Below, piece after piece: positions 1 through 9,178 of a stretch of DNA of 17,312 nucleotides. Below the pieces are notes generated by a model. It worked only from the letters and a program-made list of their open reading frames with translations, was not told the DNA's origin and did not search any database. Each line of letters begins with the position of its first letter. Within the stretch, counting starts at the first letter, position 1. The DNA is from an uncultured bacterium (GTDB taxonomy: Bacteria > Abyssobacteria > SURF-5), in NCBI GenBank assembly GCA_964510165.1, contig CAZEBC010000075.1:1-17312 (forward strand). Direction: 5' to 3'. A program made the translations under genes and the position numbers.

Positions 1-192
1 AACTCGCCCAACACTTCGTCCTTTTTCCTGAGCTTGGCCTCAAGACGGGCGATCCGCTCCTCCTCGCGCCTGCTCTTTTTCTCCCACCGCCGCTCGAATG
101 CCGCCGCGCCGCACTCAAAGAGGTGCTTTTGCCAGCGATAAAACACCGTGGGCGAAAGCCCGTGTCTGTCGCACACCTCCGACAGCGGCGCC
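1..192 (-). mobile_element. IS3-family transposase OrfA (HTH) fragment, 5'-truncated or fused, running off the left edge
   Basis: Manual minus-strand translation gives ...APLSEVCDRHGLSPTVFYRWQKHLFECGAAAFERRWEKKSRREEERIARLEAKLRKKDEVLGE. This is an HTH with the FYRW motif followed by a coiled coil, typical of IS3 OrfA. The frame is open back to ATG 344 or 410, but the part upstream of about 192 does not look like OrfA and no terminal inverted repeat is evident. Not in the ORF track. Confidence 0.75.
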
Positions 193-390
193 CCGCCCGA
201 TTCCACTCTCGCGGTCGAGCGATTTTCGGGGGCAACCTTGGGGTTTGTCTGCCCTCGCTGCCGGAACAAGGTTTTCCTCCATACGAATCCACGTACGGTC
301 ACCAGACGGCTGCGCATCTCGCTCGAGATCGCCTGGCTCGGCATAGTCAATTTCTTCCGCAGAATCACCCGCTTCCGTTCGCGGGAATAG
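193..390 (+). pseudogene. Probable 3' remnant of a gene with a CPRC motif, abutting the IS3 fragment
   Basis: The frame of ORF 148..390 reads ...LGFVCPRCRNKVFLHTNPRTVTRRLRISLEIAWLGIVNFFRRITRFRSRE* with GC3-rich codons. It ends just before REP-like palindromes, and its apparent start lies inside the IS sequence. Confidence 0.3.
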
Positions 391-396
391 TTAGAA

Positions 397-428
397 TAGG
401 GACACAGCATGCCGCATGGTGTCCCCAC
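397..428. repeat. Degenerate GTAG-type REP-like palindrome
   Basis: TAGGGACACAGCATGCCGCATGGTGTCCCCAC; arms GGGACAC/GTGTCCC; similar to the element at 7427-7451. Confidence 0.55.
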
Positions 429-490
429 TATAACTCGGGCTTCCCGCAACCCGCATAGCCATAACAAGATTTTGGTACGCCGCGCCTTGT

Positions 491-515
491 GCAGGGGCGG
501 CCCTTGTGGCCGCCC
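491..515. repeat. GTAG-type REP-like palindrome, possibly the 3' hairpin of the lexA operon
   Basis: GCAG-GGGCGGCC-CTTGT-GGCCGCCC, an 8-bp perfect stem ending 13 nt beyond the stop at 529. Confidence 0.6.
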
Positions 516-528
516 GCTCGGCAAACCA

Positions 529-795
529 TCATTCGCACATCTCTTTTTCCAGTTCGTCAATTCGCTGTTTCAGCAGCGCGATTGTCTTTTGGTGTTCCAG
601 CAGGATAGCCATGAAGATGGATTCCATCGGGACCGGGCGCGAGGCATAGGAGCAGGCAGCGGAATGGTACCTGGCCGTGTCAAATATCTCATCGAAGGCA
701 GCCTGGTCCTCTTTCCTGAGAACTCGCCGAAATTTCGCCCATTCCTCGCGTTCCTGCTGAATGACTTGCGCGATGGGCAACACCGTTCTTCCCAC
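529..795 (-). CDS. Small helical protein of the PolB2-associated type (PPB2/arCOG07300-like), 88 aa
   Basis: GTG start at 795 with RBS GGAGGT (803-808) overlapping the upstream stop. Sequence MGRTV...EREEWAKFRRVLRKEDQAAFDEIFDTARYHSAACSYASRPVPMESIFMAILLEHQK matches the recalled MGRT...W..FRR.L...D...FD...P.P.E...M.ILLE pattern. It sits next to an iRadA-like gene. Confidence 0.75.
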   Translation of the reverse strand: MGRTVLPIAQVIQQEREEWAKFRRVLRKEDQAAFDEIFDTARYHSAACSYASRPVPMESIFMAILLEHQKTIALLKQRIDELEKEMCE

Positions 796-800
796 TGCCC

Positions 801-1493
801 TCACCTCCAATCCCACTGGCGCTGGTAATGCCTCGGAAGCTCGGGCATTCGAAGCCGGTTATACAGCTTTCTTCGCGGTTTTTCCAGAGCGAACCGGGCT
901 TCGCCCTCGCCGCCTTCGCTCCTGAGCACCGTGGAGGAAATTCGTATGAGATGGTCCCGGAACCGCCTTTGCCTCGCCTCGAGCGGCAACCGGCTGTCAG
1001 GGCATACGATGAGGATACGGGTGCCTTTCCCGGCCAGCCTCATGAATTCCGCCGTAGTGGTTTCGAGCAGATCATACGCCTCGCCGAATGGAACGTCCTC
1101 ATCGTAAAACGTATCGAGCAGTCCCGATGCTACCGCAACATTCGTGTTGAATCGGCGAAACGCGCACTCCAGCCGATCCACCACGAGCGCCTGCATCTGA
1201 TGACACGTAAAGGCGCGCGAGATGTGGATGCGCCTCAGCAGGTCTTCGGACGAAAGCCCCATCTTTTGGGCAAACTTGGCTATGAAGAACGGGTTGAATG
1301 AGTTGGAGCCGTCGAGATACACGACGGGCTTCTCGCGGGCGACCCCCGCAAACGTCATGTAGAGCGCAAGGTAGGTCACCGAAAAAGCCGGCGCGCCGTA
1401 TGCCAGCACAATGCCGGCGGGCGGCTGGGCCTTGAGGTCGGCGCGGATTCTCTCGAGCGTCCCGTCCGCCGGACATGTCAGATGCTTCTCCAT
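801..1493 (-). CDS. Inactive RadA/RecA-fold protein (iRadA/ImuA-like), 230 aa
   Basis: RadA/Rad51-core motifs VVYLDGSNSFNP, L.RIHISRAFTCHQ and GLLDTFYDEDV. Walker A is degenerate (YGAPAFSVT, no GKT). The start overlaps the end of lexA. Confidence 0.8.
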   Translation of the reverse strand: MEKHLTCPADGTLERIRADLKAQPPAGIVLAYGAPAFSVTYLALYMTFAGVAREKPVVYLDGSNSFNPFFIAKFAQKMGLSSEDLLRRIHISRAFTCHQMQALVVDRLECAFRRFNTNVAVASGLLDTFYDEDVPFGEAYDLLETTTAEFMRLAGKGTRILIVCPDSRLPLEARQRRFRDHLIRISSTVLRSEGGEGEARFALEKPRRKLYNRLRMPELPRHYQRQWDWR

Positions 1494-2080
1494 ACTCCCA
1501 CAACCTTTCCGACGACCCGGAACGACGCCCCTTTCTCAACCTCTATCGGCTCCATGCGCTTGTTTTCGGGTTTCAGGATGATGCGGTCTTCCTCAATGAT
1601 AATTCGCTTGACGGTGGCCTCGTCATCAAGCAGGGCAACCACTATATCGCCGTGCTCGGCGGTCGCCTGCTGCTTGACGACGACAAAGTCGCCCGAACAA
1701 ATGTGGGCATCCACCATGCTGTCGCCTTCGACCCGCAGCAGGAAGCAGTCATTGTCATGGACCCACGCGTCCGGGAGCATGACGACGCCCTCGATGTTCT
1801 CGACCGCCAGCACAGGCTCACCCGCTGCCACGCGGCCCACAATCGGCAGTTCCCGCAGACCGCGCCTGCCCGAGCCGACCACCTCCAGCGAGCGCGCCTT
1901 CCTCGATTTTCTGGCGAGATATCCCTTCTGTATCAGCGCGCTCACGTGATTGGCCGCCGCATGCGGAAGGAACCCGAACCGCCCGCATATCTCGCGTACC
2001 GTGGGCGGATAGCCGTTCTCACCGATGAAATCCTTGATGAACTCGAGGACCTCTTTTTGCCGGTCTGTCAGCGTTCGCAT
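1478..2080 (-). CDS. lexA: SOS transcriptional repressor LexA
   Basis: N-terminal LTDRQ..VLEFI...GYPPTVREI winged helix, cleavage site VGRVAAG, catalytic Ser in GDSM and Lys in ATVKR. Confidence 0.97.
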   Translation of the reverse strand: MRTLTDRQKEVLEFIKDFIGENGYPPTVREICGRFGFLPHAAANHVSALIQKGYLARKSRKARSLEVVGSGRRGLRELPIVGRVAAGEPVLAVENIEGVVMLPDAWVHDNDCFLLRVEGDSMVDAHICSGDFVVVKQQATAEHGDIVVALLDDEATVKRIIIEEDRIILKPENKRMEPIEVEKGASFRVVGKVVGVWRSI

Positions 2081-2129
2081 CGCCTTTCTCCACGAGACTC
2101 AGTTTCGTTGGGATATTTTCTTCTGCCAA

Positions 2130-2158
2130 ATTATACTATACATTTGTATACTTGTCAA
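2130..2158 (-). promoter_or_regulatory. Consensus sigma70 promoter of the lexA operon
   Basis: Minus strand reads TTGACA (2158-2153), 17-nt spacer, TATAAT (2135-2130), about 50 nt upstream of the lexA ATG. Confidence 0.9.
2137..2150. promoter_or_regulatory. Candidate LexA operator TATACA-N2-TGTATA
   Basis: 6-2-6 palindrome TATACATTTGTATA filling the -35/-10 spacer of the lexA promoter. Confidence 0.7.
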
Positions 2159-2330: not shown

Positions 2331-3518
2331 ATGGCAACCGAATTCAAGTTTCCCGATGTCGGCGAAGGAATCACCGAGGGCGAGGTCGTGCTGTGGCTCG
2401 TGGAAGAGGGCGAGCGCGTCGAGCGGGACCAGCCGATGGTACAGGTGGAAACCGATAAGGCGGTCGTCGAGATACCCTCTCCGCGCGCCGGCGTCATCCT
2501 GAGAATCAATTTCCGCGAGGGCGAGATCGTGAAGGTGGGCGAGACGCTCGTTGTCATCGGCGACGAAGGCGAAAAGCTGGAGGAAAAGGCGCCGGAGGAA
2601 AAAGAAGAGAAAAAGGAATACGTCGGCATTGTGGGCGCAATCGAGGAGGAAAAGCCGAAAGGGGCCGCGAGGCCGCGCGCTCTTGCCGTGCCCGCCGTCC
2701 GCAAACTCGCCCGCGAACTCGGGGTGGACATCGATGCGGTGAGGGGGACCGGAGAGGGCGGCCGCGTCACCGAGGAAGATGTCCGCCGCCACGCCGAGCG
2801 GGCGCAGGTCAAGGAAGAGGAGTACGGCGAAGTCGAGCGCGTGCCCATCATGCGTGTGCGTCGCAGCATCGCGCAGAAAATGGTTCGCTCGAAGTTCTCG
2901 ATCCCGCACGTCACGCATATGGACCTGGCGAACGCCTCGGAACTCGTCAAACTGAAGAATCGACATTCCAAGGAAGCGAAGGCCAAGGGCATCCATCTGA
3001 CGTATCTGCCGTACATCATGAAGGCTGTCGCGCTCTCGCTCAAGAAGCATCCCTACCTCAACTCATCCATCGACACCGAGCGAAACGAGATCATCCTCAA
3101 GAAATACATCAATATCGGATTCGCAGCCGAGACCGAGGACGGCCTGCTCGTGCCCGTCGTGAAGGATGTCGACAAGAAATCCGTTTTCGAACTCGCGGAG
3201 GAGACCCGCCGCCTCAGCGACCTGGCGCGCCAGAGGAAAATCGCGCTCGCCGACCTGAAGGGCGGCACATTCAGCATCACCAACATAGGCAGCATCGGCG
3301 GCATCTATGCGACGCCCATCATCAACCATCCCGAATCGGCGAACTTGGCCGTCGGCAGAATCCGCCAGATGCCCTGGGTTGTTGACGGGGAGGTCGGAAT
3401 AATTCACGGCGTGTACCTGTCGCTCTCGTTCGATCACCGCATCCTCGACGGCGCCGACGCCGCCCGGTTCACGAACGAGGTCATCGGTTACATCGAGCAT
3501 CCCGAGACGATCACCTGA
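2331..3518 (+). CDS. Dihydrolipoamide acyltransferase (E2) of a 2-oxoacid dehydrogenase complex
   Basis: Single lipoyl domain (PDVGEGITEG...VETDKA), subunit-binding domain (PAVRKLARELGVDI..V.GTG.GGRVT.EDV), catalytic domain GGTFSITNIG and FDHRILDG; RBS GAGG. Confidence 0.96.
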   Translation: MATEFKFPDVGEGITEGEVVLWLVEEGERVERDQPMVQVETDKAVVEIPSPRAGVILRINFREGEIVKVGETLVVIGDEGEKLEEKAPEEKEEKKEYVGIVGAIEEEKPKGAARPRALAVPAVRKLARELGVDIDAVRGTGEGGRVTEEDVRRHAERAQVKEEEYGEVERVPIMRVRRSIAQKMVRSKFSIPHVTHMDLANASELVKLKNRHSKEAKAKGIHLTYLPYIMKAVALSLKKHPYLNSSIDTERNEIILKKYINIGFAAETEDGLLVPVVKDVDKKSVFELAEETRRLSDLARQRKIALADLKGGTFSITNIGSIGGIYATPIINHPESANLAVGRIRQMPWVVDGEVGIIHGVYLSLSFDHRILDGADAARFTNEVIGYIEHPETIT

Positions 3519-3534
3519 GCGAGAGCCGAATGCG

Positions 3535-4041
3535 ATGGCAATAGAACTGATAAGAGCGTCACGAGAGCAACAGCCGCTCCTGGAGCGACTCTTGCAGTTA
3601 TATTTGTACGATTTCAGCGAGTTCGGAGGGTTTGACGTCGGTCCCGACGGCGTCTTTGACGCCTCGTTGCTCAGACTCGACTCGTATTGGACCGAATCAG
3701 ACCGGGTTCCCTTCCTTGTCTATGTCGAGGGCGAGATCGCAGGTTTTGTGCTCGTCAATTCGTACACGTGCCTTGACGAGAACAGTGGTGGCAGGTCGAT
3801 CGCCGAATTCTTCATCATGCGCAAGTACCGAAGACAGGGAGTTGGCAAGGCGGCAGCGTTCCAAGTCTTCGAGAGATTCCGGGGCAAATGGGAAGTCAGG
3901 CAGCTCAAGATAAACGGCGTCGGCCAGCGGTTTTGGAGACGCGTCATTCGCGAATACACCCGAGGGCGATTCCGGGAAACGCTTCTGGACAACGACTCCT
4001 GGCGCGGCCCGGTACAGAGTTTCGATAATGGCGGGCGCTGA
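3535..4041 (+). CDS. GNAT family N-acetyltransferase
   Basis: L..LLQLYLYDFSEF N-terminus, acetyl-CoA motif A IAEFFIMRKYRRQGVGK, and N..GQRFW. Confidence 0.92.
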   Translation: MAIELIRASREQQPLLERLLQLYLYDFSEFGGFDVGPDGVFDASLLRLDSYWTESDRVPFLVYVEGEIAGFVLVNSYTCLDENSGGRSIAEFFIMRKYRRQGVGKAAAFQVFERFRGKWEVRQLKINGVGQRFWRRVIREYTRGRFRETLLDNDSWRGPVQSFDNGGR

Positions 4042-4047
4042 GAGAAG

Positions 4048-4446
4048 CTACTTGTTCTTTTTCTTCGTCTGTCCCGGCGGATACTTTTTCTTGTGTTCGT
4101 CGGCTTTCAGATAGGGCTTGTCGGAGTCCGATTCGATCACCACGTACTCGTCCAACTGGACGCTCAGATGCACCGGCAACGAGCCCGATACTCTCCATTC
4201 GCCGTCCTCGTAATAAAAATACAGGCCCCTCGCCGGCTCAAAATACACCTGCGCTCCCGGATAATAATGATACATGTGCTTGGCCCTGTATCCCCATGCC
4301 GGCGCATGGGGTGGCGGCCCCTGCTTTACCTCAGGCTCCGTCCCCACGTACACCCCGCCCTCCGTCGAAGCGCAGGCGAGAGACGTAACGGCCAACAGCA
4401 GGCAGCATAACACAATACCCCACTTCGAGACGGGTATGCGTTCCAT
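4048..4446 (-). CDS. Small lipoprotein of unknown function (GPPPHAPAWGYR / KKYPPGQ type), 132 aa
   Basis: ATG 4446 with GGGGGA RBS; hydrophobic signal ending in lipobox SLAC; GPPPHAPAWGYRAKH, YYYP..QVYF...RGLYFY and C-terminal YPPGQTKKK. Confidence 0.8.
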   Translation of the reverse strand: MERIPVSKWGIVLCCLLLAVTSLACASTEGGVYVGTEPEVKQGPPPHAPAWGYRAKHMYHYYPGAQVYFEPARGLYFYYEDGEWRVSGSLPVHLSVQLDEYVVIESDSDKPYLKADEHKKKYPPGQTKKKNK

Positions 4447-4640
4447 CTTCAATCCCCCATTCGTCGAGCGCAATAAATTGCGCCCTCTACACCGAAACCT
4501 TGTTACAGAAATGTCATGTTCCTGTCATGAATCGTTATCGGCGCCGATCAGCACCAAGCCTTTTCGTCAAATTCGCCTTTTCATTGCGGCGAAGCTCAGC
4601 CTTAGGGAGCAAATGCCGTGCCACCGACCCAGCACCTGTT

Positions 4641-4680
4641 TCTTGGTGACTCTTTGTGTCCTTGGTGATTGGGTGGTTGA
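4641..4680 (-). repeat. Dispersed CACCAAGACACAAAG-type intergenic repeat
   Basis: Reverse complement TCAACCACCCAATCACCAAGGACACAAAGAGTCACCAAGA resembles 9180-9210. Confidence 0.6.
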
Positions 4681-4702
4681 AGCGACGCCATATCGGTCGC
4701 CC

Positions 4703-5401
4703 TTACGGCAGCCAGAACGGCCCGGTTTTCCCGATCTCCTTCAGCGTCATCAGAAAGCCTCCGACATATCCCTGCATATGCGAAAGGTAGTCCGGGTCCA
4801 GCCGCCTCCGGAAAAAATCGGCCGAAAACAGCTTCACGAGATCCTCGAACGGGATGATGCCCGCCTCTTTCTCCGCATCAAAATGGGCCCAGTTCCTCAG
4901 ATGTTCTTCCGACCGGAAGAAATGCATCGTGCTTCAGGCAAAACCGGGGTCTTCCATCCACTTCAGGAATGGAACCGACACGTGACCGATCACGGTCTCG
5001 GGGTCCTTGCGGAGAACTTTCCCGTCTTTCATCTCGACGCGGACCGGCTCGCCGCAGTCGAGGCACGGGGAATCTATACGAACGGTTTTGCCCGGCAAGA
5101 GCCAGCAGACCGCCAGCGATTCAAACGCTCACTGGCCAAACCATTTCTGCTGACCATCTACGGTGATGCGGTACTGATTCGGAAGGTTGTGAAAGGGGGC
5201 CATTGACACGATCAGGTCGGTCTTGGGGTACAGCCAGCCGGGAACGCCCGAATTCATGAGATCGTGAAGCGCCCTCCTGCCTTCCTCCATCGAAAGGCCG
5301 AGTTGTCTCGCGATCTCCGTGTAGTGCGGCGCCTGCCCGGTTTCCACCATTCGTCGCATGATGACGTTGAACGTCCTATCCAGCATGGTAGGCTCGCTCA
5401 T
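4703..5401 (-). CDS. MerB (organomercurial lyase)-like selenoprotein with two selenocysteines (U91, U156), 232 aa
   Basis: ATG 5401 with RBS AAGGAGGT. One frame joins ORF-track pieces 5129..5452 and 4703..4927 through in-frame TGA at 5131-5129 and 4936-4934: ...QQKWFGQ-U-AFESLAVCWLLPGKTVRIDSPCLDCGEPVRVEMKDGKVLRKDPETVIGHVSVPFLKWMEDPGFA-U-STMHFFRSEEH... These match MerB WC96ALD, SxC...G.PV and C159..VHFF.S. The true stop is TAA at 4705-4703. Confidence 0.9.
4900..4928 (-). promoter_or_regulatory. Candidate bacterial SECIS element for the second UGA
   Basis: mRNA after UGA: AGCAC-GAUG-CAU-UUCUUCC-GGUC-GGAAGAA-CAUC. 7-bp perfect upper stem plus 4-bp lower stem; apical loop starts with G at +20. 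Confidence 0.8.
5099..5122 (-). promoter_or_regulatory. Candidate bacterial SECIS element for the first UGA
   Basis: mRNA after UGA: GCGUUUGAAUC-GCUGGC-GGUCU-GCUGGC-UC. 6-bp stem with two G-U pairs; apical loop starts with G at +18 and has the same GGUC as the second element. Confidence 0.7.
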
Positions 5402-5436
5402 GGGGTGTTCACCTCCTTGGGGTTTGTCCGGACGGC

Positions 5437-5465
5437 ATAATATCAGAGACACACGCGCGTTTCAA
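5437..5465 (-). promoter_or_regulatory. Sigma70-type promoter for the MerB-like gene
   Basis: Minus strand TTGAAA, 17 nt, TATTAT, with an extended -10 TG. Confidence 0.65.
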
Positions 5466-5501
5466 GCGAGAAGCGGGGATACCCGTTTCTCTCGCAGATG
5501 T

Positions 5502-5530
5502 TTGACAACGATGACTCCCGCACATATACT
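5502..5530 (+). promoter_or_regulatory. Sigma70-type promoter for the acyl-CoA dehydrogenase
   Basis: TTGACA (5502-5507), 17 nt, TATACT (5525-5530). Confidence 0.75.
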
Positions 5531-5590
5531 TGCTTCAACACACATCCATAACGAAACTTGCGTTCCAAACCCCATACGAGAGGTGAAAAT

Positions 5591-7288
5591 ATGTTGTTGA
5601 ACCCCAAGAAACACGTTCGTGAATATCCTGACGAAACATCCAGAGAAATCATGCGCAAGACCATCAAGTTCTTCGAGAAAAAGGGAAAGAACAAGATCAA
5701 GGAGGACGACCACAAGAAAGTCTGGTACGCGGATTTTCTTGATTTCGTCAAGCAGGAGAAGATCTTCGCCACACTTCTCACGCCCTCCAGTTATGGCGAC
5801 GGACCAGACTTTCGCTGGGACACCTGGAGAAACTGCGAGTTCAATGAGATTCTCGGTTTCTACGGCCTCTGCTATTGGTACACCTGGCAGGTCTCCATCC
5901 TGGGGCTCGGCCCCATCTGGATGAGCGACAACGAGGAACTTAAGCTGAAAGCGGCGCACCTGCTCAAACAAGGCGCCATCTTCGCGTTCGGCCTCTCCGA
6001 GAAGGAACACGGCGCGGACGTCTATTCGACCGGAATGACGCTTACGCCTCAGCCCGACGGGACCTTCAAGGCCAACGGCGAAAAGTATTACATCGGCAAC
6101 GCCAATGAGGCGCCCATGATCTCGACCTTCGGCAAGATGGCCGACACCGGCGATTACGTTTTCTTCGTGGTCGACTCAAGACACGAGAAGTTCGAGCTCA
6201 AGAAGAATGTGGTCGATTCCCAGAATTATGTCGCCAATTTCGCGCTCAACGATTATCCCATCACCAAGGCCGATATCCTGCTCATGGGCAAGGACGCCTG
6301 GAACGCCGCGCTCAACACCGTCAATGTCGGCAAGTACAACCTCGGCTGGGCCTCCATCGGAATATGCACTCATGCCATGTACGAGGCCATCAACCACGCC
6401 GCCAACCGCCGCCTTTACAACATGTATGTGACCGACTTCCCGCATGTCAAACAGATGTTCACCGACGCCTACGCGCGGCTCATGGCGATGAAACTCTTCG
6501 CGCTCCGGGCTGCCGATTACATGCGCACCGCCTCTCCCGCCGACAGACGCTACCTGCTCTACAATTCCGTCGTCAAGATGAAGGTCACCACCCAGGGCGA
6601 GGAAGTTATAACGCTCCTCTGGGATGTCATCGCCGCCAAGGGGTTCGAGAAGGACATGTATTTCGAGATGGCCGCCAGGGACATACGCGCGCTGCCCAGG
6701 CTCGAGGGCACCGTCCACGTCAACATCGCCCTCATCCTGAAATTCATGCCGAATTACTTCCTCAATCCCGGGCAACTCCCCGACATATCAAGACAGATGG
6801 AACCCCGCAGCGACGACTTTCTCTTCAGGCAGGGACCCACGCGCGGCCTGGGGAATGTCCAGTTCCACGACTACAACATCGCCTACGACAGCTATGACCT
6901 GCCCAACGTCAACAGGTTCAAGGAGCAGATTGAGGTATTCAAGGAGTTTTTGATGACCGCCCCGCCCACCGCCGAACAGCAGCAGGACACCGATTTCATC
7001 ATGAGCCTGGGCGAGTTGTTCACCTTGATAGTGTACGGGCAGCTTATTCTCGAGAACGCGAAGATTTACAGCGTTGAGAATGACCTGGTGGACCAGATGT
7101 TCGATTTCATGGTGAGGGATTTCTCAAAGTACGCACTCGATGTCCATGGCAAGCAGAGCAGCACACCCGAGCAAATGGCCCTCTGTATGAAGATGATTCG
7201 CAAGCCCGTGGCCAACGGGGATCGCTACAGCAACGTCTGGCAAAACCACGTGCTCGCGCTCAAGAACCTGTATGAGATGAATCCGTGA
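5591..7288 (+). CDS. Acyl-CoA dehydrogenase (extended, about 565 aa)
   Basis: ATG 5591 after GAGAGGTG; AFGLSEKEHGAD, NGEKYYIGN, and C-terminal catalytic-Glu region RDIRALPRLEGTVHVN. Confidence 0.95.
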   Translation: MLLNPKKHVREYPDETSREIMRKTIKFFEKKGKNKIKEDDHKKVWYADFLDFVKQEKIFATLLTPSSYGDGPDFRWDTWRNCEFNEILGFYGLCYWYTWQVSILGLGPIWMSDNEELKLKAAHLLKQGAIFAFGLSEKEHGADVYSTGMTLTPQPDGTFKANGEKYYIGNANEAPMISTFGKMADTGDYVFFVVDSRHEKFELKKNVVDSQNYVANFALNDYPITKADILLMGKDAWNAALNTVNVGKYNLGWASIGICTHAMYEAINHAANRRLYNMYVTDFPHVKQMFTDAYARLMAMKLFALRAADYMRTASPADRRYLLYNSVVKMKVTTQGEEVITLLWDVIAAKGFEKDMYFEMAARDIRALPRLEGTVHVNIALILKFMPNYFLNPGQLPDISRQMEPRSDDFLFRQGPTRGLGNVQFHDYNIAYDSYDLPNVNRFKEQIEVFKEFLMTAPPTAEQQQDTDFIMSLGELFTLIVYGQLILENAKIYSVENDLVDQMFDFMVRDFSKYALDVHGKQSSTPEQMALCMKMIRKPVANGDRYSNVWQNHVLALKNLYEMNP

Positions 7289-7396: not shown

Positions 7397-7426
7397 CAAA
7401 CAAAAGAACAAGCACCACCGTCCCTT

Positions 7427-7451
7427 TAGGGGCGCAGCATGCTGCGCCCTA
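7427..7451. repeat. REP-like perfect palindrome between convergent genes
   Basis: 20-bp perfect palindrome GGGCGCAGCATGCTGCGCCC (7430-7449) flanked by TAG...TA. Confidence 0.75.
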
Positions 7452-7461
7452 GATGAGCCCA

Positions 7462-9084
7462 TTACTTGAACAGCACAGCCTCGATCTCCGGGTCCTGCGG
7501 CTTCACTCTTACCTTCATCGCTTCGGCGGAGTATGAACTGGCCAGCCGATTCCTTGCATCGGGACTCAGCGTCTCGAAGAATCTCTTCGTGAACGCCATT
7601 TGTCCTTTTCCGGCACTGCTGCACATGCGCGCCGCGTTATTCACCACGGCGCCTATCAGCGTATAGTCCAGCCGCACCTCTTGTCCCATATCGCCCATAA
7701 TCACCTCTCCGAAGTCGCACCCGATGCCGACAGGGAGCAAGCCGCCGCTTGCAATGGCCTCGTGTATCTTCATGGACGCGACAGCGCAGTCGGAGAGCTT
7801 GTAGTCGGGGAAATATGCCAGTATGCCGTCACCCATGAGCTTATTGACACGGCCTCCGCACGAATTTATTGTTCTCGACGTGAGTTCGTATTGCCTGTTA
7901 AGCATCAGCACCACGTCGTCGGGGGATCTGTCGGCGCTCCATTTCGTGAACTCTCGAATATCTATGAACATGACGGCCACGTTTGTCTTGAAAGCCTGCA
8001 AGCCGCGCTTCACCACGTCGCCGACCTTCGTATCGGTCCCGAAGCGCATGCCGTATTGCCTGCTTAGGAACCTCCTCCGAATGGAGTCCAATATCTGCGT
8101 GGTTTGTAGAGACCAGATGTTGTTCCACTCATGCTCCTGGCTGTATGTCAACGGATTCGCGACGCCCAATTCCTTCGCCTTTTCTGATACGGTGTCTATC
8201 AACAGCGCGAGCGTCGACGGCCCTTCCGCCATCGCCGCCTTCATCAGTTCCTGCAATGTGCCCGCGTCTATCTCCTTCTTCAACCAATACTCAAGCCATG
8301 CCTTTCCCACTCTGTAAAGCTCCTCTATCCTTCCGGTCGAAGGTTTGTTCCTTAATTCCTGCACGAGCTGTCCCGGCTCGACCTCAAGCAGCATGTTCAG
8401 GAACTTTTCGACGTTATCCTGTATGATCCCGCCATGCTGCGGCAGTATCCTTTCCAGCTTGAGAGTCTTGATCTTCTCATACGCATACAGCACCGGCTCT
8501 TTCGCTGCGATATAGTGCTCGATGAAACTTTTGGCCAGCGGCACGTACGACTCGTCCGCGTACAGGCTCCATTCCCGGCTGAACACCGCGAAGATATCGC
8601 TCGAGAACAAGGACGCCGTCTTCTCGTCGTAACTCATCATGTTGCCCGCAAAATGGAGATACGGCGCATGATAAAAGAAGATTCGCCTGCCCGACTTCAT
8701 CCTCAGCGAGTCGCCGTCACCCAGCGGCAGCACGCCCTTCCTGACCCCGTAATACGGAACGAACAGCGAGGTCCTCGGATGACTCATGATCACGAGGTCG
8801 GGGTGCAGCGAATTCTCGATGAAGGGGATCAATCCGCACAAGTCGGGGTCCTGATGATGGACAACGATATACTTTATCCGCTCCGGACTCACCACCTGCT
8901 CGATCTTTTGAAGGATAAGGTCCCGGAAAAGCGGATGGCCCGGCCCCGGATCGAAGAGCACGGCCTCCTCCTCATCCACCAACAAATAGGGGTTGTTCGA
9001 GAAGCCAGCCTCGTAATCCGCAAACCCCACCCACCAGATGTCATCCGCTATCTTGATAGCATTCGAGTCATCAAGCTTCCTCAT
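7462..9084 (-). CDS. ODP-like (MBL-fold di-iron) sensor domain fused to a class III adenylate cyclase, 540 aa
   Basis: ATG 9084 with RBS GGAGG. N-terminal: IWWVG, NPYLL...LFDPG, HHQDPDLCG, HFAGN, LFSSDIF, PQHG. C-terminal: MFIDIREFT, VNKLMGDGILAYF, GIGCDFGEVIMG, DYTLIGAVVNNAARM. Confidence 0.9.
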   Translation of the reverse strand: MRKLDDSNAIKIADDIWWVGFADYEAGFSNNPYLLVDEEEAVLFDPGPGHPLFRDLILQKIEQVVSPERIKYIVVHHQDPDLCGLIPFIENSLHPDLVIMSHPRTSLFVPYYGVRKGVLPLGDGDSLRMKSGRRIFFYHAPYLHFAGNMMSYDEKTASLFSSDIFAVFSREWSLYADESYVPLAKSFIEHYIAAKEPVLYAYEKIKTLKLERILPQHGGIIQDNVEKFLNMLLEVEPGQLVQELRNKPSTGRIEELYRVGKAWLEYWLKKEIDAGTLQELMKAAMAEGPSTLALLIDTVSEKAKELGVANPLTYSQEHEWNNIWSLQTTQILDSIRRRFLSRQYGMRFGTDTKVGDVVKRGLQAFKTNVAVMFIDIREFTKWSADRSPDDVVLMLNRQYELTSRTINSCGGRVNKLMGDGILAYFPDYKLSDCAVASMKIHEAIASGGLLPVGIGCDFGEVIMGDMGQEVRLDYTLIGAVVNNAARMCSSAGKGQMAFTKRFFETLSPDARNRLASSYSAEAMKVRVKPQDPEIEAVLFK

Positions 9085-9178
9085 CGCCTTACCCTCCTCT
9101 CCTGGTGACACGCAACAACACATCAATTAAATTATGCCACCAAAATGACGGATATGACGGAGGGACGCGAAGATGTCA

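Follow-up and report, generated by a model that had tools for sequence, protein, structure and literature searches.

A lexA-iRadA-PPB2 operon, probably the regulatory and accessory half of a PolB2 mutasome cassette, with its polymerase gene at an unlinked locus

Genes and flanking elements of the lexA-iRadA-PPB2 locus

The window, i.e. the whole stretch of 17,312 nucleotides that was analysed, is one entire contig (C75) of a MAG of 4.17 Mb in 325 contigs, 97% complete and with 1.6% contamination. Its segment under study harboured three coupled minus-strand genes, lexA, iRadA and PPB2, all of them at the positions given in the initial annotation, with a promoter on one side and repeats and part of an insertion sequence on the other (Table 1). 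The end of lexA overlapped the next start, as had also been proposed, the stretch from the iRadA ATG (1493-1491) to the lexA stop (1480-1478), 16 nt long, being common to both genes. At the following junction, a GGAGG (808-804) abuts the iRadA stop TGA (803-801), 8 nt before the GTG of PPB2. The longest ORF of this small gene has 95 aa and begins at a GTG at 816; the start was placed at GTG 795-793 (88 aa) because the N-terminus of the family, MGRT, fixes it.

Table 1 Features of the locus, of the polB2 gene of the same genome and of the contiguous cassette of a relative.
Sequence	Feature	Position	Strand	Basis
C75	Analysed stretch (promoter, lexA, iRadA, PPB2)	529-2158	-	
C75	Operon promoter, TTGACA-17 nt-TATAAT	2130-2158	-	12/12 sigma-70 consensus matches
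C75	LexA-type operator AGTATACAAATGTATAGT, AGTATAC-N4-GTATAGT	2135-2152	-	fills promoter spacer
C75	lexA, cassette-type LexA paralog, 200 aa	1478-2080	-	TIGR00498 and domain matches
C75	iRadA, RadA/Rad51 ATPase core, 230 aa	801-1493	-	fold, motif, family alignment
C75	PPB2, small helical protein, 88 aa, GTG start	529-795	-	MGRT motif, homologs, model
C75	Stable GC-rich stem-loop without U-run, directly after PPB2 stop	476-528	-	RNA fold -33.9 kcal/mol, z -2.87
C75	REP-like palindromic repeat	390-434	.	28-54 nt matches on at least 10 other contigs, some in both orientations
C75	IS3-family transposase orfA, 5' part (ATG 344-342), running off the contig end	1-344	-	HTH_Tnp_1, E 2e-7
C79	polB2, 727 aa, no stops	4368-6551		genome search
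L004/G001	lexA	7408-8016		
L004/G001	iRadA	8001-8681		
L004/G001	PPB2	8672-8953		
L004/G001	PolB2	from 9004		

The lexA product scored 224 bits against TIGR00498, for which the curated cut-off is 110.95, and showed a LexA_DNA_bind domain (PF01726, 5.5e-21) and a Peptidase_S24 domain (PF00717, 9.9e-36). VAAGEP, GDSM and TVKR all occur in its sequence; we take the first to be the cleavage site and the other two to be the Ser/Lys dyad of LexA. A second full-length LexA, 42% identical to that of the cassette, is encoded on contig C102 of the same genome and has a different operator, the direct repeat CTTTCGCCT-N3-TTTCGCCT.

Sequence searches with iRadA returned weak Rad51/RadA matches. When its structure model (pLDDT 89.5) was compared by Foldseek, the approach suggested with the initial annotation, the best 50 matches were all RadA/RAD51 cores, with E values down to 7e-11, a TM score of 0.65 and 16-18% identity. 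The protein is devoid of the N-terminal helical domain and, at 230 aa, is as large as the aligned monomeric RadA core chains (217-228 aa). Moreover, the Walker A lysine is missing (GAPAFSVT aligned to GPESSGKT of RecA), and a GK[ST] was found at this position in 0 of the 22 iRadA rows inspected from the 64-sequence family alignment. The fold match and the missing lysine thus bear out the description of the middle protein as a RadA core with a dead Walker A.

With PPB2 as the query, 306 homologs were retrieved at E<=0.001, and all 120 among the matches listed carried PF26485.1; PPB2 itself hit no family in the Pfam/NCBIfam scans, PF26485.1 being absent from the Pfam set scanned. Residues G2, R3 and T4 were invariant in the family (58 sequences) and M1 was present in at least 90% of it. 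The model obtained (pLDDT 84.8) consisted of an arm (1-7) and three helices (8-25, 28-50 and 56-87), so length, motif and modelled helices agree with the 88-aa helical MGRT protein anticipated. Position 9 is not Arg in this bacterial group; a conserved Arg has been published nearby, in a numbering that may differ. [quoted passage not shown] Sigma factors were absent among the best 50 matches of our monomer model in a wide VIA-align search, where the best Z was 4.9 and the hits were to generic long helices. Taken together, the fold, the motifs, the family and the existence of relatives with PolB2 encoded directly after the pair identify both proteins as the iRadA and PPB2 of the PolB2 system, as had been suggested.

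Beyond PPB2, the core of the stem-loop (489-516) is a repeated element with 96% matches at two places on contig C8, and Logan contigs branch at position 512; a canonical intrinsic terminator was not found after PPB2. Together with the REP-like repeat and the first 114 codons of the IS3-like orfA, these are the hairpins and the IS3 fragment noticed before. Window positions 1-93 recur with 98.9% identity at the end of contig C83, and it is to the IS3-like repeat that we attribute the assembly break at the left end of C75, past whose position 1 Logan contigs extend by 238-712 nt. The PPB2-repeat-IS junction is unbroken in a 647-nt contig from another study (window 25-674). Since the window is an entire contig, whose left end falls inside the repeated IS3-like gene, the earlier remark that no polymerase follows covers 528 nt only: none is encoded within that distance to the left of PPB2, where the contig stops.

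LexA operators and the polB2 gene

The TATACA-N2-TGTATA box initially pointed out was located in the spacer of the operon promoter. An identical promoter and palindrome precede lexA in L002 and L003; L004 has a variant there, CTGTACATATGTTCAG, the palindrome being kept in 4 of the 4 family genomes examined. Across the 4.17-Mb genome it is the sole site with one mismatch at most to the palindrome, and its PWM score, 31.3, compares with 21.2 for the next-best site. Autoregulation of LexA would be expected to leave such a predicted operator in the promoter of its own gene. Other candidate sites for this LexA (C20:31291, C140:10257, C8:16881 and C54:7785) were discarded, all of them being inside unrelated coding regions or where such regions start, and none was found upstream of recA or dinB in a genome-wide search.

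PolB2 mutasomes are recently recognised translesion polymerase complexes, mostly known in silico, which bacteria got from archaea. Searching the genome for the polymerase returned exactly one PolB2 match, an intact gene on contig C79 (Table 1). Its product was colinear with the proteins of G001 and G005 and 66% identical to either of them over the full-length alignment (67% by genome search), and the PolB2 relative in L004 matches DNA_pol_B at 4.6e-37. The motifs DFASMYPAIM and HAIVDSLWV are kept, D504 being invariant in 62 sequences; the IVD of the latter motif can be read, by analogy with 401-IID-403 of S. islandicus, as a DxD whose first Asp has been replaced. In a metagenome contig search with this PolB2, 2 short loci were recovered.

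The upstream neighbour of polB2 is a divergent amidohydrolase-like gene, the genes before polB2 are unrelated, and no PPB2 or iRadA remnant was found upstream of it on C79. iRadA and PPB2 adjoin on C75 and polB2 lies on C79, a departure from the known cassette, where the three genes are adjacent in the order iRadA-PPB2-PolB2. Synteny was uninformative about an insertion of polB2 between its C79 neighbours, the orthologs of the flanking genes lying on different contigs in all relatives. The polB2 locus has its own weak promoter-like site. Its upstream region scored -1.4 with the PWM of the cassette LexA, against 25.6-31.3 for true sites (8.6% of random windows equal it), and lacks the direct-repeat box of the second LexA, the best match having 8 mismatches out of 17; these operator motifs were built from 4 and 4 sequences, so that a diverged site, or the site of a third regulator, would be missed at polB2.

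Three fates had been envisaged for the polymerase. Encoding in trans agrees with the single intact polB2 on C79 and with the separation likewise seen in the closest relative, and the same 727-aa gene refutes a loss. Replacement by DinB found no support, as the single Y-family gene (PF00817) is on another contig without an operator upstream.

Separation of polB2 from iRadA and PPB2 in related genomes

In three more distant family members, iRadA is followed by polB2 after 0.3-1.5 kb of the same contig; the cassette of L004/G001 is given in Table 1, and G005 and G004 also have polB2 on the contig of iRadA. The closest relative, the NCBI MAG Kow0099, shows 84% identity for iRadA and PolB2. Its iRadA-PPB2 pair (locus tags 18530 and 18540) is found on a contig of 78,654 nt, and another contig, of 87,791 nt, encodes its PolB2. 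As these different contigs are long, the split is real. Pairs of iRadA and PPB2 apart from polB2 were also found in three further genomes, two bacterial and one archaeal, and the split layout has thus been seen in the Abyssubacteria lineage, an Ignavibacteriales MAG, a Chitinophagales MAG and a Bathyarchaeia MAG. The layout is recurrent but little-noted, although solo cases may stand in the supplementary tables of PMC11791011.

Considering what was obtained directly, namely the gene identities, the uniqueness and conservation of the operator, the unlinked intact polB2 and the same separation in the closest relative, we regard it as very probable that the segment 529-2158 represents one half, regulatory and accessory, of a bacterial PolB2 mutasome cassette whose intact polymerase gene is at an unlinked locus. 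The alternative that fares best is a decaying cassette, in which repeat or IS activity would have broken the ancestral lexA-iRadA-PPB2-polB2 operon, leaving the accessory genes, the relocated polymerase gene or both heading for loss and no longer cooperating. An IS3-like gene and REP-like repeats indeed come directly after PPB2, the LexA operator context is gone at polB2, and the cassette is also interrupted in two related MAGs, G007, with no PPB2 in the 196 nt between iRadA and the contig end, and G009, where PPB2 directly precedes polB2 and no iRadA occurs in the 300 nt before PPB2. Nevertheless, none of the four ORFs is disrupted or has lost the family-invariant residues, and the split with intact genes persists in a relative at 84% identity. 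Furthermore, strains differ at 15 places within PPB2 and iRadA, with 10 synonymous changes and no indels, as opposed to 6 indels in the flanking non-coding/IS part, and for this reason the two genes look maintained. Decay therefore seems unlikely to us.

Even less probable is an artefact of assembly or binning, with polB2 really following PPB2 beyond the IS and C79 being chimeric or derived from another population. The MAG is fragmented, C75 ends 528 nt beyond PPB2, inside a multi-copy repeat, and downstream of iRadA at short distance is where polB2 resides in the three family members mentioned above. On C79, however, polB2 is flanked by unique sequence, 4.3 kb before it and 10.4 kb after it, it is the only copy in the genome, and the GC content and tetranucleotide usage of both C75 and C79 are typical of the bin. 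In addition, the 90%-identity cluster of this PolB2 has members on two JGI contigs (38,251 and 37,902 nt) that do not encode iRadA (for the corresponding iRadA cluster, no contig longer than 17,312 nt was seen), and Kow0099 separates the pair from PolB2 on contigs of 78.7 kb and 87.8 kb. A polB2 just left of the window is thus very unlikely, though the contig ends in a repeat, because the single copy sits in a unique context elsewhere. Similarly hard to credit is a LexA-controlled role of iRadA-PPB2 independent of PolB2, whether of its own or with another polymerase partner, for which the extra two-gene iRadA-arCOG07300 operons without polymerase reported in several haloarchaea (PMC4104785) and the other detached pairs could be invoked, since every examined genome with such a pair (the present one, G041-G045 and Kow0099) also has PolB2, the only Y-family gene of the genome has no operator, and binding of PolB2 is reported to be specific to iRadA (PMC11791011, section 3.3.2).

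Relation to known systems and proposed operation

Bacterial operons of the type (lexA)-iRadA-PPB2-PolB2 have been described by Makarova, Krupovic & Koonin 2014 (PMC4104785), with Leptospirillum ferriphilum LFML04_0990-0993 as an example, and by Timinskas, Timinskas & Venclovas 2025 (PMC11791011), so that the cassette, lexA included, is already published. Common to them and the present system are the set of three accessory and regulatory genes, its order and orientation, the inclusion of lexA in the operon, an iRadA without N-terminal domain and ATPase lysine, a PPB2 of about 90 aa with an MGRT arm, and a PolB2 whose DxD is replaced by IVD. The locus departs from them in that polB2 is outside the operon, on another contig, with no related gene within 4.3 kb and no LexA operator. 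An accessory pair without adjacent polymerase is also what the haloarchaeal operons of iRadA (arCOG07763) and arCOG07300 consist of, but these archaeal pairs are described as extra copies beside a full operon (PMC4104785), whereas here the copy is the sole one, bacterial and headed by lexA. What we have here is a known damage-response gene set whose split layout is uncommon, and nothing new in kind.

Pseudomonas putida and its relatives reportedly possess a lexA2-imuA-imuB-dnaE2 mutagenesis cassette. There too, a second, dedicated LexA with its own operator is said to head an SOS operon that starts with a RecA-fold accessory gene, the differences being a C-family DnaE2, a Y-family-like ImuB and other accessory proteins. 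In the present operon it is PPB2, not imuB, that follows the RecA-fold gene, and no imuB-like second Y-family gene was found in the genome, where PF00817 has a single match on another contig. E. coli Pol V (UmuD'2C-RecA) is likewise a translesion polymerase under LexA control, made up of several subunits, among them a member of the RecA/Rad51 family and, according to the models in PMC11791011, a small subunit with an N-terminal arm that reaches the active site; it differs in that the polymerase belongs to the Y-family, RecA is an active housekeeping protein and umuD and umuC are co-transcribed.

By analogy with these systems, the dedicated LexA paralog would repress its own lexA-iRadA-PPB2 operon through the palindrome inside the consensus promoter, and DNA damage would release transcription of iRadA and PPB2 by RecA-stimulated self-cleavage of LexA. 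The catalytic subunit would be the PolB2-type family-B polymerase encoded on C79 and lacking a recognisable LexA operator, with iRadA as the presumed ATPase-dead RadA-core subunit and the MGRT arm of PPB2 inserted, as the literature predicts, between the polymerase and iRadA. A PolB2:iRadA:PPB2(3) complex has been modelled, the published evidence for it being in silico (PMC11791011), and its counterpart here may likewise carry out translesion or mutagenic synthesis. Because polB2 is unlinked and has no operator, such a complex would be built from the products of two loci, with damage control falling on the accessory subunits.

Two related genomes thus offer a natural case in which the accessory genes are under a dedicated LexA and the polymerase gene is unlinked and operator-free. 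Provided that the proteins still assemble, such an organism makes two questions testable: are iRadA and PPB2 the components that are regulated and limit the complex, and does PolB2 also act without its accessory proteins, as suggested by its activity on its own in vitro? A further proposal, which we put forward tentatively and with considerable doubt, is that the split is a maintained regulatory design which has arisen more than once, with a LexA-independent polB2 promoter and LexA gating the accessory subunits only; damage would then decide whether the mutasome assembles or becomes active, and not whether the polymerase is made. As a rough measure of how strict the linkage is, among the PolB2 loci of other species (n=62) both partners were directly upstream in 57 and about 5.4 kb upstream, the cassette being interrupted, in 2, and were unlinked, on separate stretches, in the other 3.

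Gene content of the lexA-iRadA-PPB2 operon

The cassette lies in the window, which makes up all of contig C75 in a MAG (G000) of 4.17 Mb in 325 contigs, with 97% completeness and 1.6% contamination. As initially annotated, its three genes are tightly coupled: lexA overlaps the iRadA gene by 16 nt, and a GGAGG (808-804) abuts the iRadA stop, 8 nt ahead of a GTG codon from which the third protein begins MGRT. We placed the PPB2 start at this GTG because of the GGAGG spacing and because MGRT is the family N-terminus, G2, R3 and T4 being invariant in a 58-sequence alignment.

Features of the PolB2 system in G000 (positions in the window unless another contig is named)
Feature	Position	Strand	Remarks
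lexA (LexA-1)	1478-2080	minus	TIGR00498, 224 bits (cut-off 110.95); LexA DNA-binding and S24 peptidase domains
iRadA gene	801-1493	minus	starts within lexA
PPB2 gene	529-795	minus	preferred start GTG 795; longest ORF 95 aa
operon promoter	2158-2130	minus	TTGACA-17-TATAAT, 12/12 consensus positions
polB2	C79:4368-6551		sole PolB2 match in G000; 727 aa, no stops
second LexA gene (LexA-2)	C102:3140-3751	minus	full-length, 203 bits, 42% identical to cassette LexA

Sequence searches with the middle protein returned weak Rad51/RadA matches only. Every Foldseek hit listed for its structure model (pLDDT 89.5) was a RadA/RAD51 ATPase core (E down to 7e-11, TM 0.65); the protein itself lacks the N-terminal domain. 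In a HMMER alignment GAPAFSVT stood opposite the RecA Walker A motif GPESSGKT, and GK[ST] was absent at this position from the 22 sequences listed of the 64-sequence iRadA family alignment. Judged from sequence and model, the middle protein is an inactivated RadA, in line with the RadA core and dead Walker A proposed for it. The small protein had 306 homologs at E≤0.001, with PF26485.1 on all of the 120 listed, and its model (pLDDT 84.8) has residues 1-7 as an extended arm, after which come three helical segments. A fold search with this model matched nothing specific; the arm, the helices and the invariant G2/R3/T4 are consistent with the PPB2 described by Timinskas et al. 2025 (PMC11791011), as the initial annotation had suggested.

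A polymerase gene unlinked from its accessory operon

The polymerase had been proposed to be encoded in trans, lost, or replaced by another partner. Loss is contradicted by the single intact polB2 on contig C79, and encoding in trans is supported by that gene and by the same separation in Kow0099, the closest relative. The G000 protein is colinear with, and 66% identical in full-length alignment (67% by genome search) to, those of G001 and G005, and retains DFASMYPAIM and HAIVDSLWV, with IVD replacing DxD. The gene is in the interior of its contig. Its upstream neighbour, 158 nt away, is the end of a divergent amidohydrolase-like gene; farther out are genes for a flavin reductase and a hemerythrin-domain protein, and a long ORF on the minus strand without an assigned family. 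A genome search found no PPB2 or iRadA remnants elsewhere in G000. Among the family genomes, a 727-aa family-B polymerase gene starts 50 nt past PPB2 of the same cassette in G001 (locus L004), iRadA and PolB2 are about 0.3-0.5 kb apart in G005 and 1.5 kb apart on one contig in G004, polB2 is directly preceded by PPB2 in G009, and the contig stops at the cassette in G007 and G002. The PolB2 genes of G004 (L002 3801-7055) and G009 (L009 810-3788) encode some 990-1,085 aa, with insertions within the polymerase that in G009 are charged, low-complexity stretches.

At its left end the window runs into the 5' portion of an IS3-type orfA. The terminal 93 nt of this portion are found again where contig C83 ends; the remainder of the element is unassembled, so that the assembly stops here, inside the element. 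An artefactual split is nevertheless disfavoured by several observations. The polB2 flanks on C79 (4.3 kb and 10.4 kb) are unique, and the 90%-identity cluster of the G000 PolB2 has members on two JGI contigs (38,251 and 37,902 nt), the contigs seen for the iRadA cluster being all of 17,312 nt or less. In Kow0099, an NCBI MAG whose iRadA and PolB2 are each 84% identical to the G000 proteins, iRadA and PPB2 (Kow0099_18530 and 18540) lie on a 78,654-nt contig and PolB2 on a separate one of 87,791 nt. The PPB2-repeat-IS junction was reproduced in Logan contigs from 4 runs of 3 studies, the best of which may be the source sample and then non-independent, and window positions 25-674 are covered by one 647-nt Logan contig from another strain. 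Composition of the cassette contig and of C79 was ordinary for the bin. Strain differences in PPB2 and iRadA comprised no indels and were synonymous in 10 of the 15 listed (3 more are unlisted); those in the non-coding/IS portion included 6 indels.

Two REP-like palindromic repeat families (window 390-434 and 489-516), spread over many G000 contigs, are branch points of the Logan contigs. Unrelated repeat-like sequence interrupts the cassette at contig ends beside iRadA or PPB2 in G007 (L003 8706-8901) and G009 (L009 1-300), suggesting that the locus is a frequent repeat target in the family.

We then surveyed PolB2 loci of species-representative genomes (the best 80 of at least 594), 62 of which extended 1,500 nt or more upstream of polB2. 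PPB2 and iRadA both lay upstream on the same strand in 57; the other 5 had neither within the locus, even at relaxed thresholds, with HMMs built from close homologs of this lineage that could miss a very divergent iRadA. All 5 genomes encode PPB2 elsewhere. Two of them have the iRadA-PPB2 pair on the polB2 contig, 5.3 and 5.5 kb upstream of the polymerase gene and just past the surveyed flank; in the other three (Ignavibacteriales, Chitinophagales and Bathyarchaeia MAGs) it occupies a stretch not overlapping the polB2 locus, and in the first two of these MAGs about 1.5 kb downstream of PPB2 contained no PolB2 match. An unlinked polB2 is thus a recurrent minority state (3/62, among the best 80 of at least 594 loci).

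Two LexA proteins and their putative operators

The spacer of the operon promoter contains the palindrome AGTATACAAATGTATAGT. Promoter and palindrome are nearly identical ahead of lexA in L002 and L003, with the variant CTGTACATATGTTCAG in L004. In G000 this is the sole site with at most one mismatch; it scored 31.3 with the PWM against 21.2 for the next-best site, and the remaining high-scoring sites fall in unrelated coding regions. The box was found upstream of neither dinB nor recA in G000, and the polB2 upstream region reached a PWM score of just -1.4, equalled by 8.6% of random windows; a promoter-like site there (9/12 matches) lies 17 nt before the ATG. Cassette-type lexA occurs in 7 of the 10 family genomes and adjoins iRadA in 6; in the seventh (G008) it lies near a contig start and no iRadA was found. 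Given this linkage and the uniqueness of the G000 site, the cassette LexA looks like a dedicated autoregulator. It resembles in this the lexA2 that the Pseudomonas imuA-imuB-dnaE2 cassette has of its own.

The second lexA type is present in 5 of the 10 genomes; in G000 it and a DEAD_2 (XPD/DinG-like) helicase gene are divergently arranged. The consensus-like promoter of this lexA (upstream to ~3820) contains the direct repeat CTTTCGCCT-N3-TTTCGCCT, kept in 4/4 family genomes examined, which differs from the cassette palindrome and is reminiscent of direct-repeat LexA boxes. This repeat was not found upstream of polB2 (best match, 8/17 mismatches). Its next-best occurrence (C204, ~4561; 2/17 mismatches) is upstream of two minus-strand genes (2882-4450 and 2063-2863) whose translations, by eye, resemble topoisomerase VI subunits B and A.

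Proposed working of the system and neighbouring genes

With the parts list and the genomic separation observed and the operator predicted, LexA-1 would repress lexA-iRadA-PPB2. Published work, itself computational where bacteria are concerned, leads us to infer that DNA damage would lift this repression, and that iRadA and three PPB2 subunits, as a trimer, would associate with the PolB2 made from its own locus in an active translesion mutasome as modelled by Timinskas et al. The system is of an already known kind: a lexA-linked bacterial iRadA-PPB2-PolB2 operon is described in 2014 (PMC4104785) and again in 2025 (PMC11791011), and iRadA-arCOG07300 pairs without polymerase are described in haloarchaea (PMC4104785). 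Particular here, within a limited literature search and with the PMC11791011 supplements possibly listing cases, are the full unlinking of the accessory operon from the polymerase gene, kept in two related genomes, and a polB2 apparently free of operator control.

Elsewhere in the window, two short adjoining minus-strand ORFs of 54 and 74 aa (4703-5098) could together represent a merB-like gene that has been split or has degraded, the 54-aa ORF matching MerB (alkylmercury lyase) at 24.7 bits, below the cut-off of 27. A further minus-strand gene (7462-9126) encodes a 554-aa fusion of an ODP-family metallo-beta-lactamase-fold domain and an adenylate/guanylate cyclase catalytic domain.
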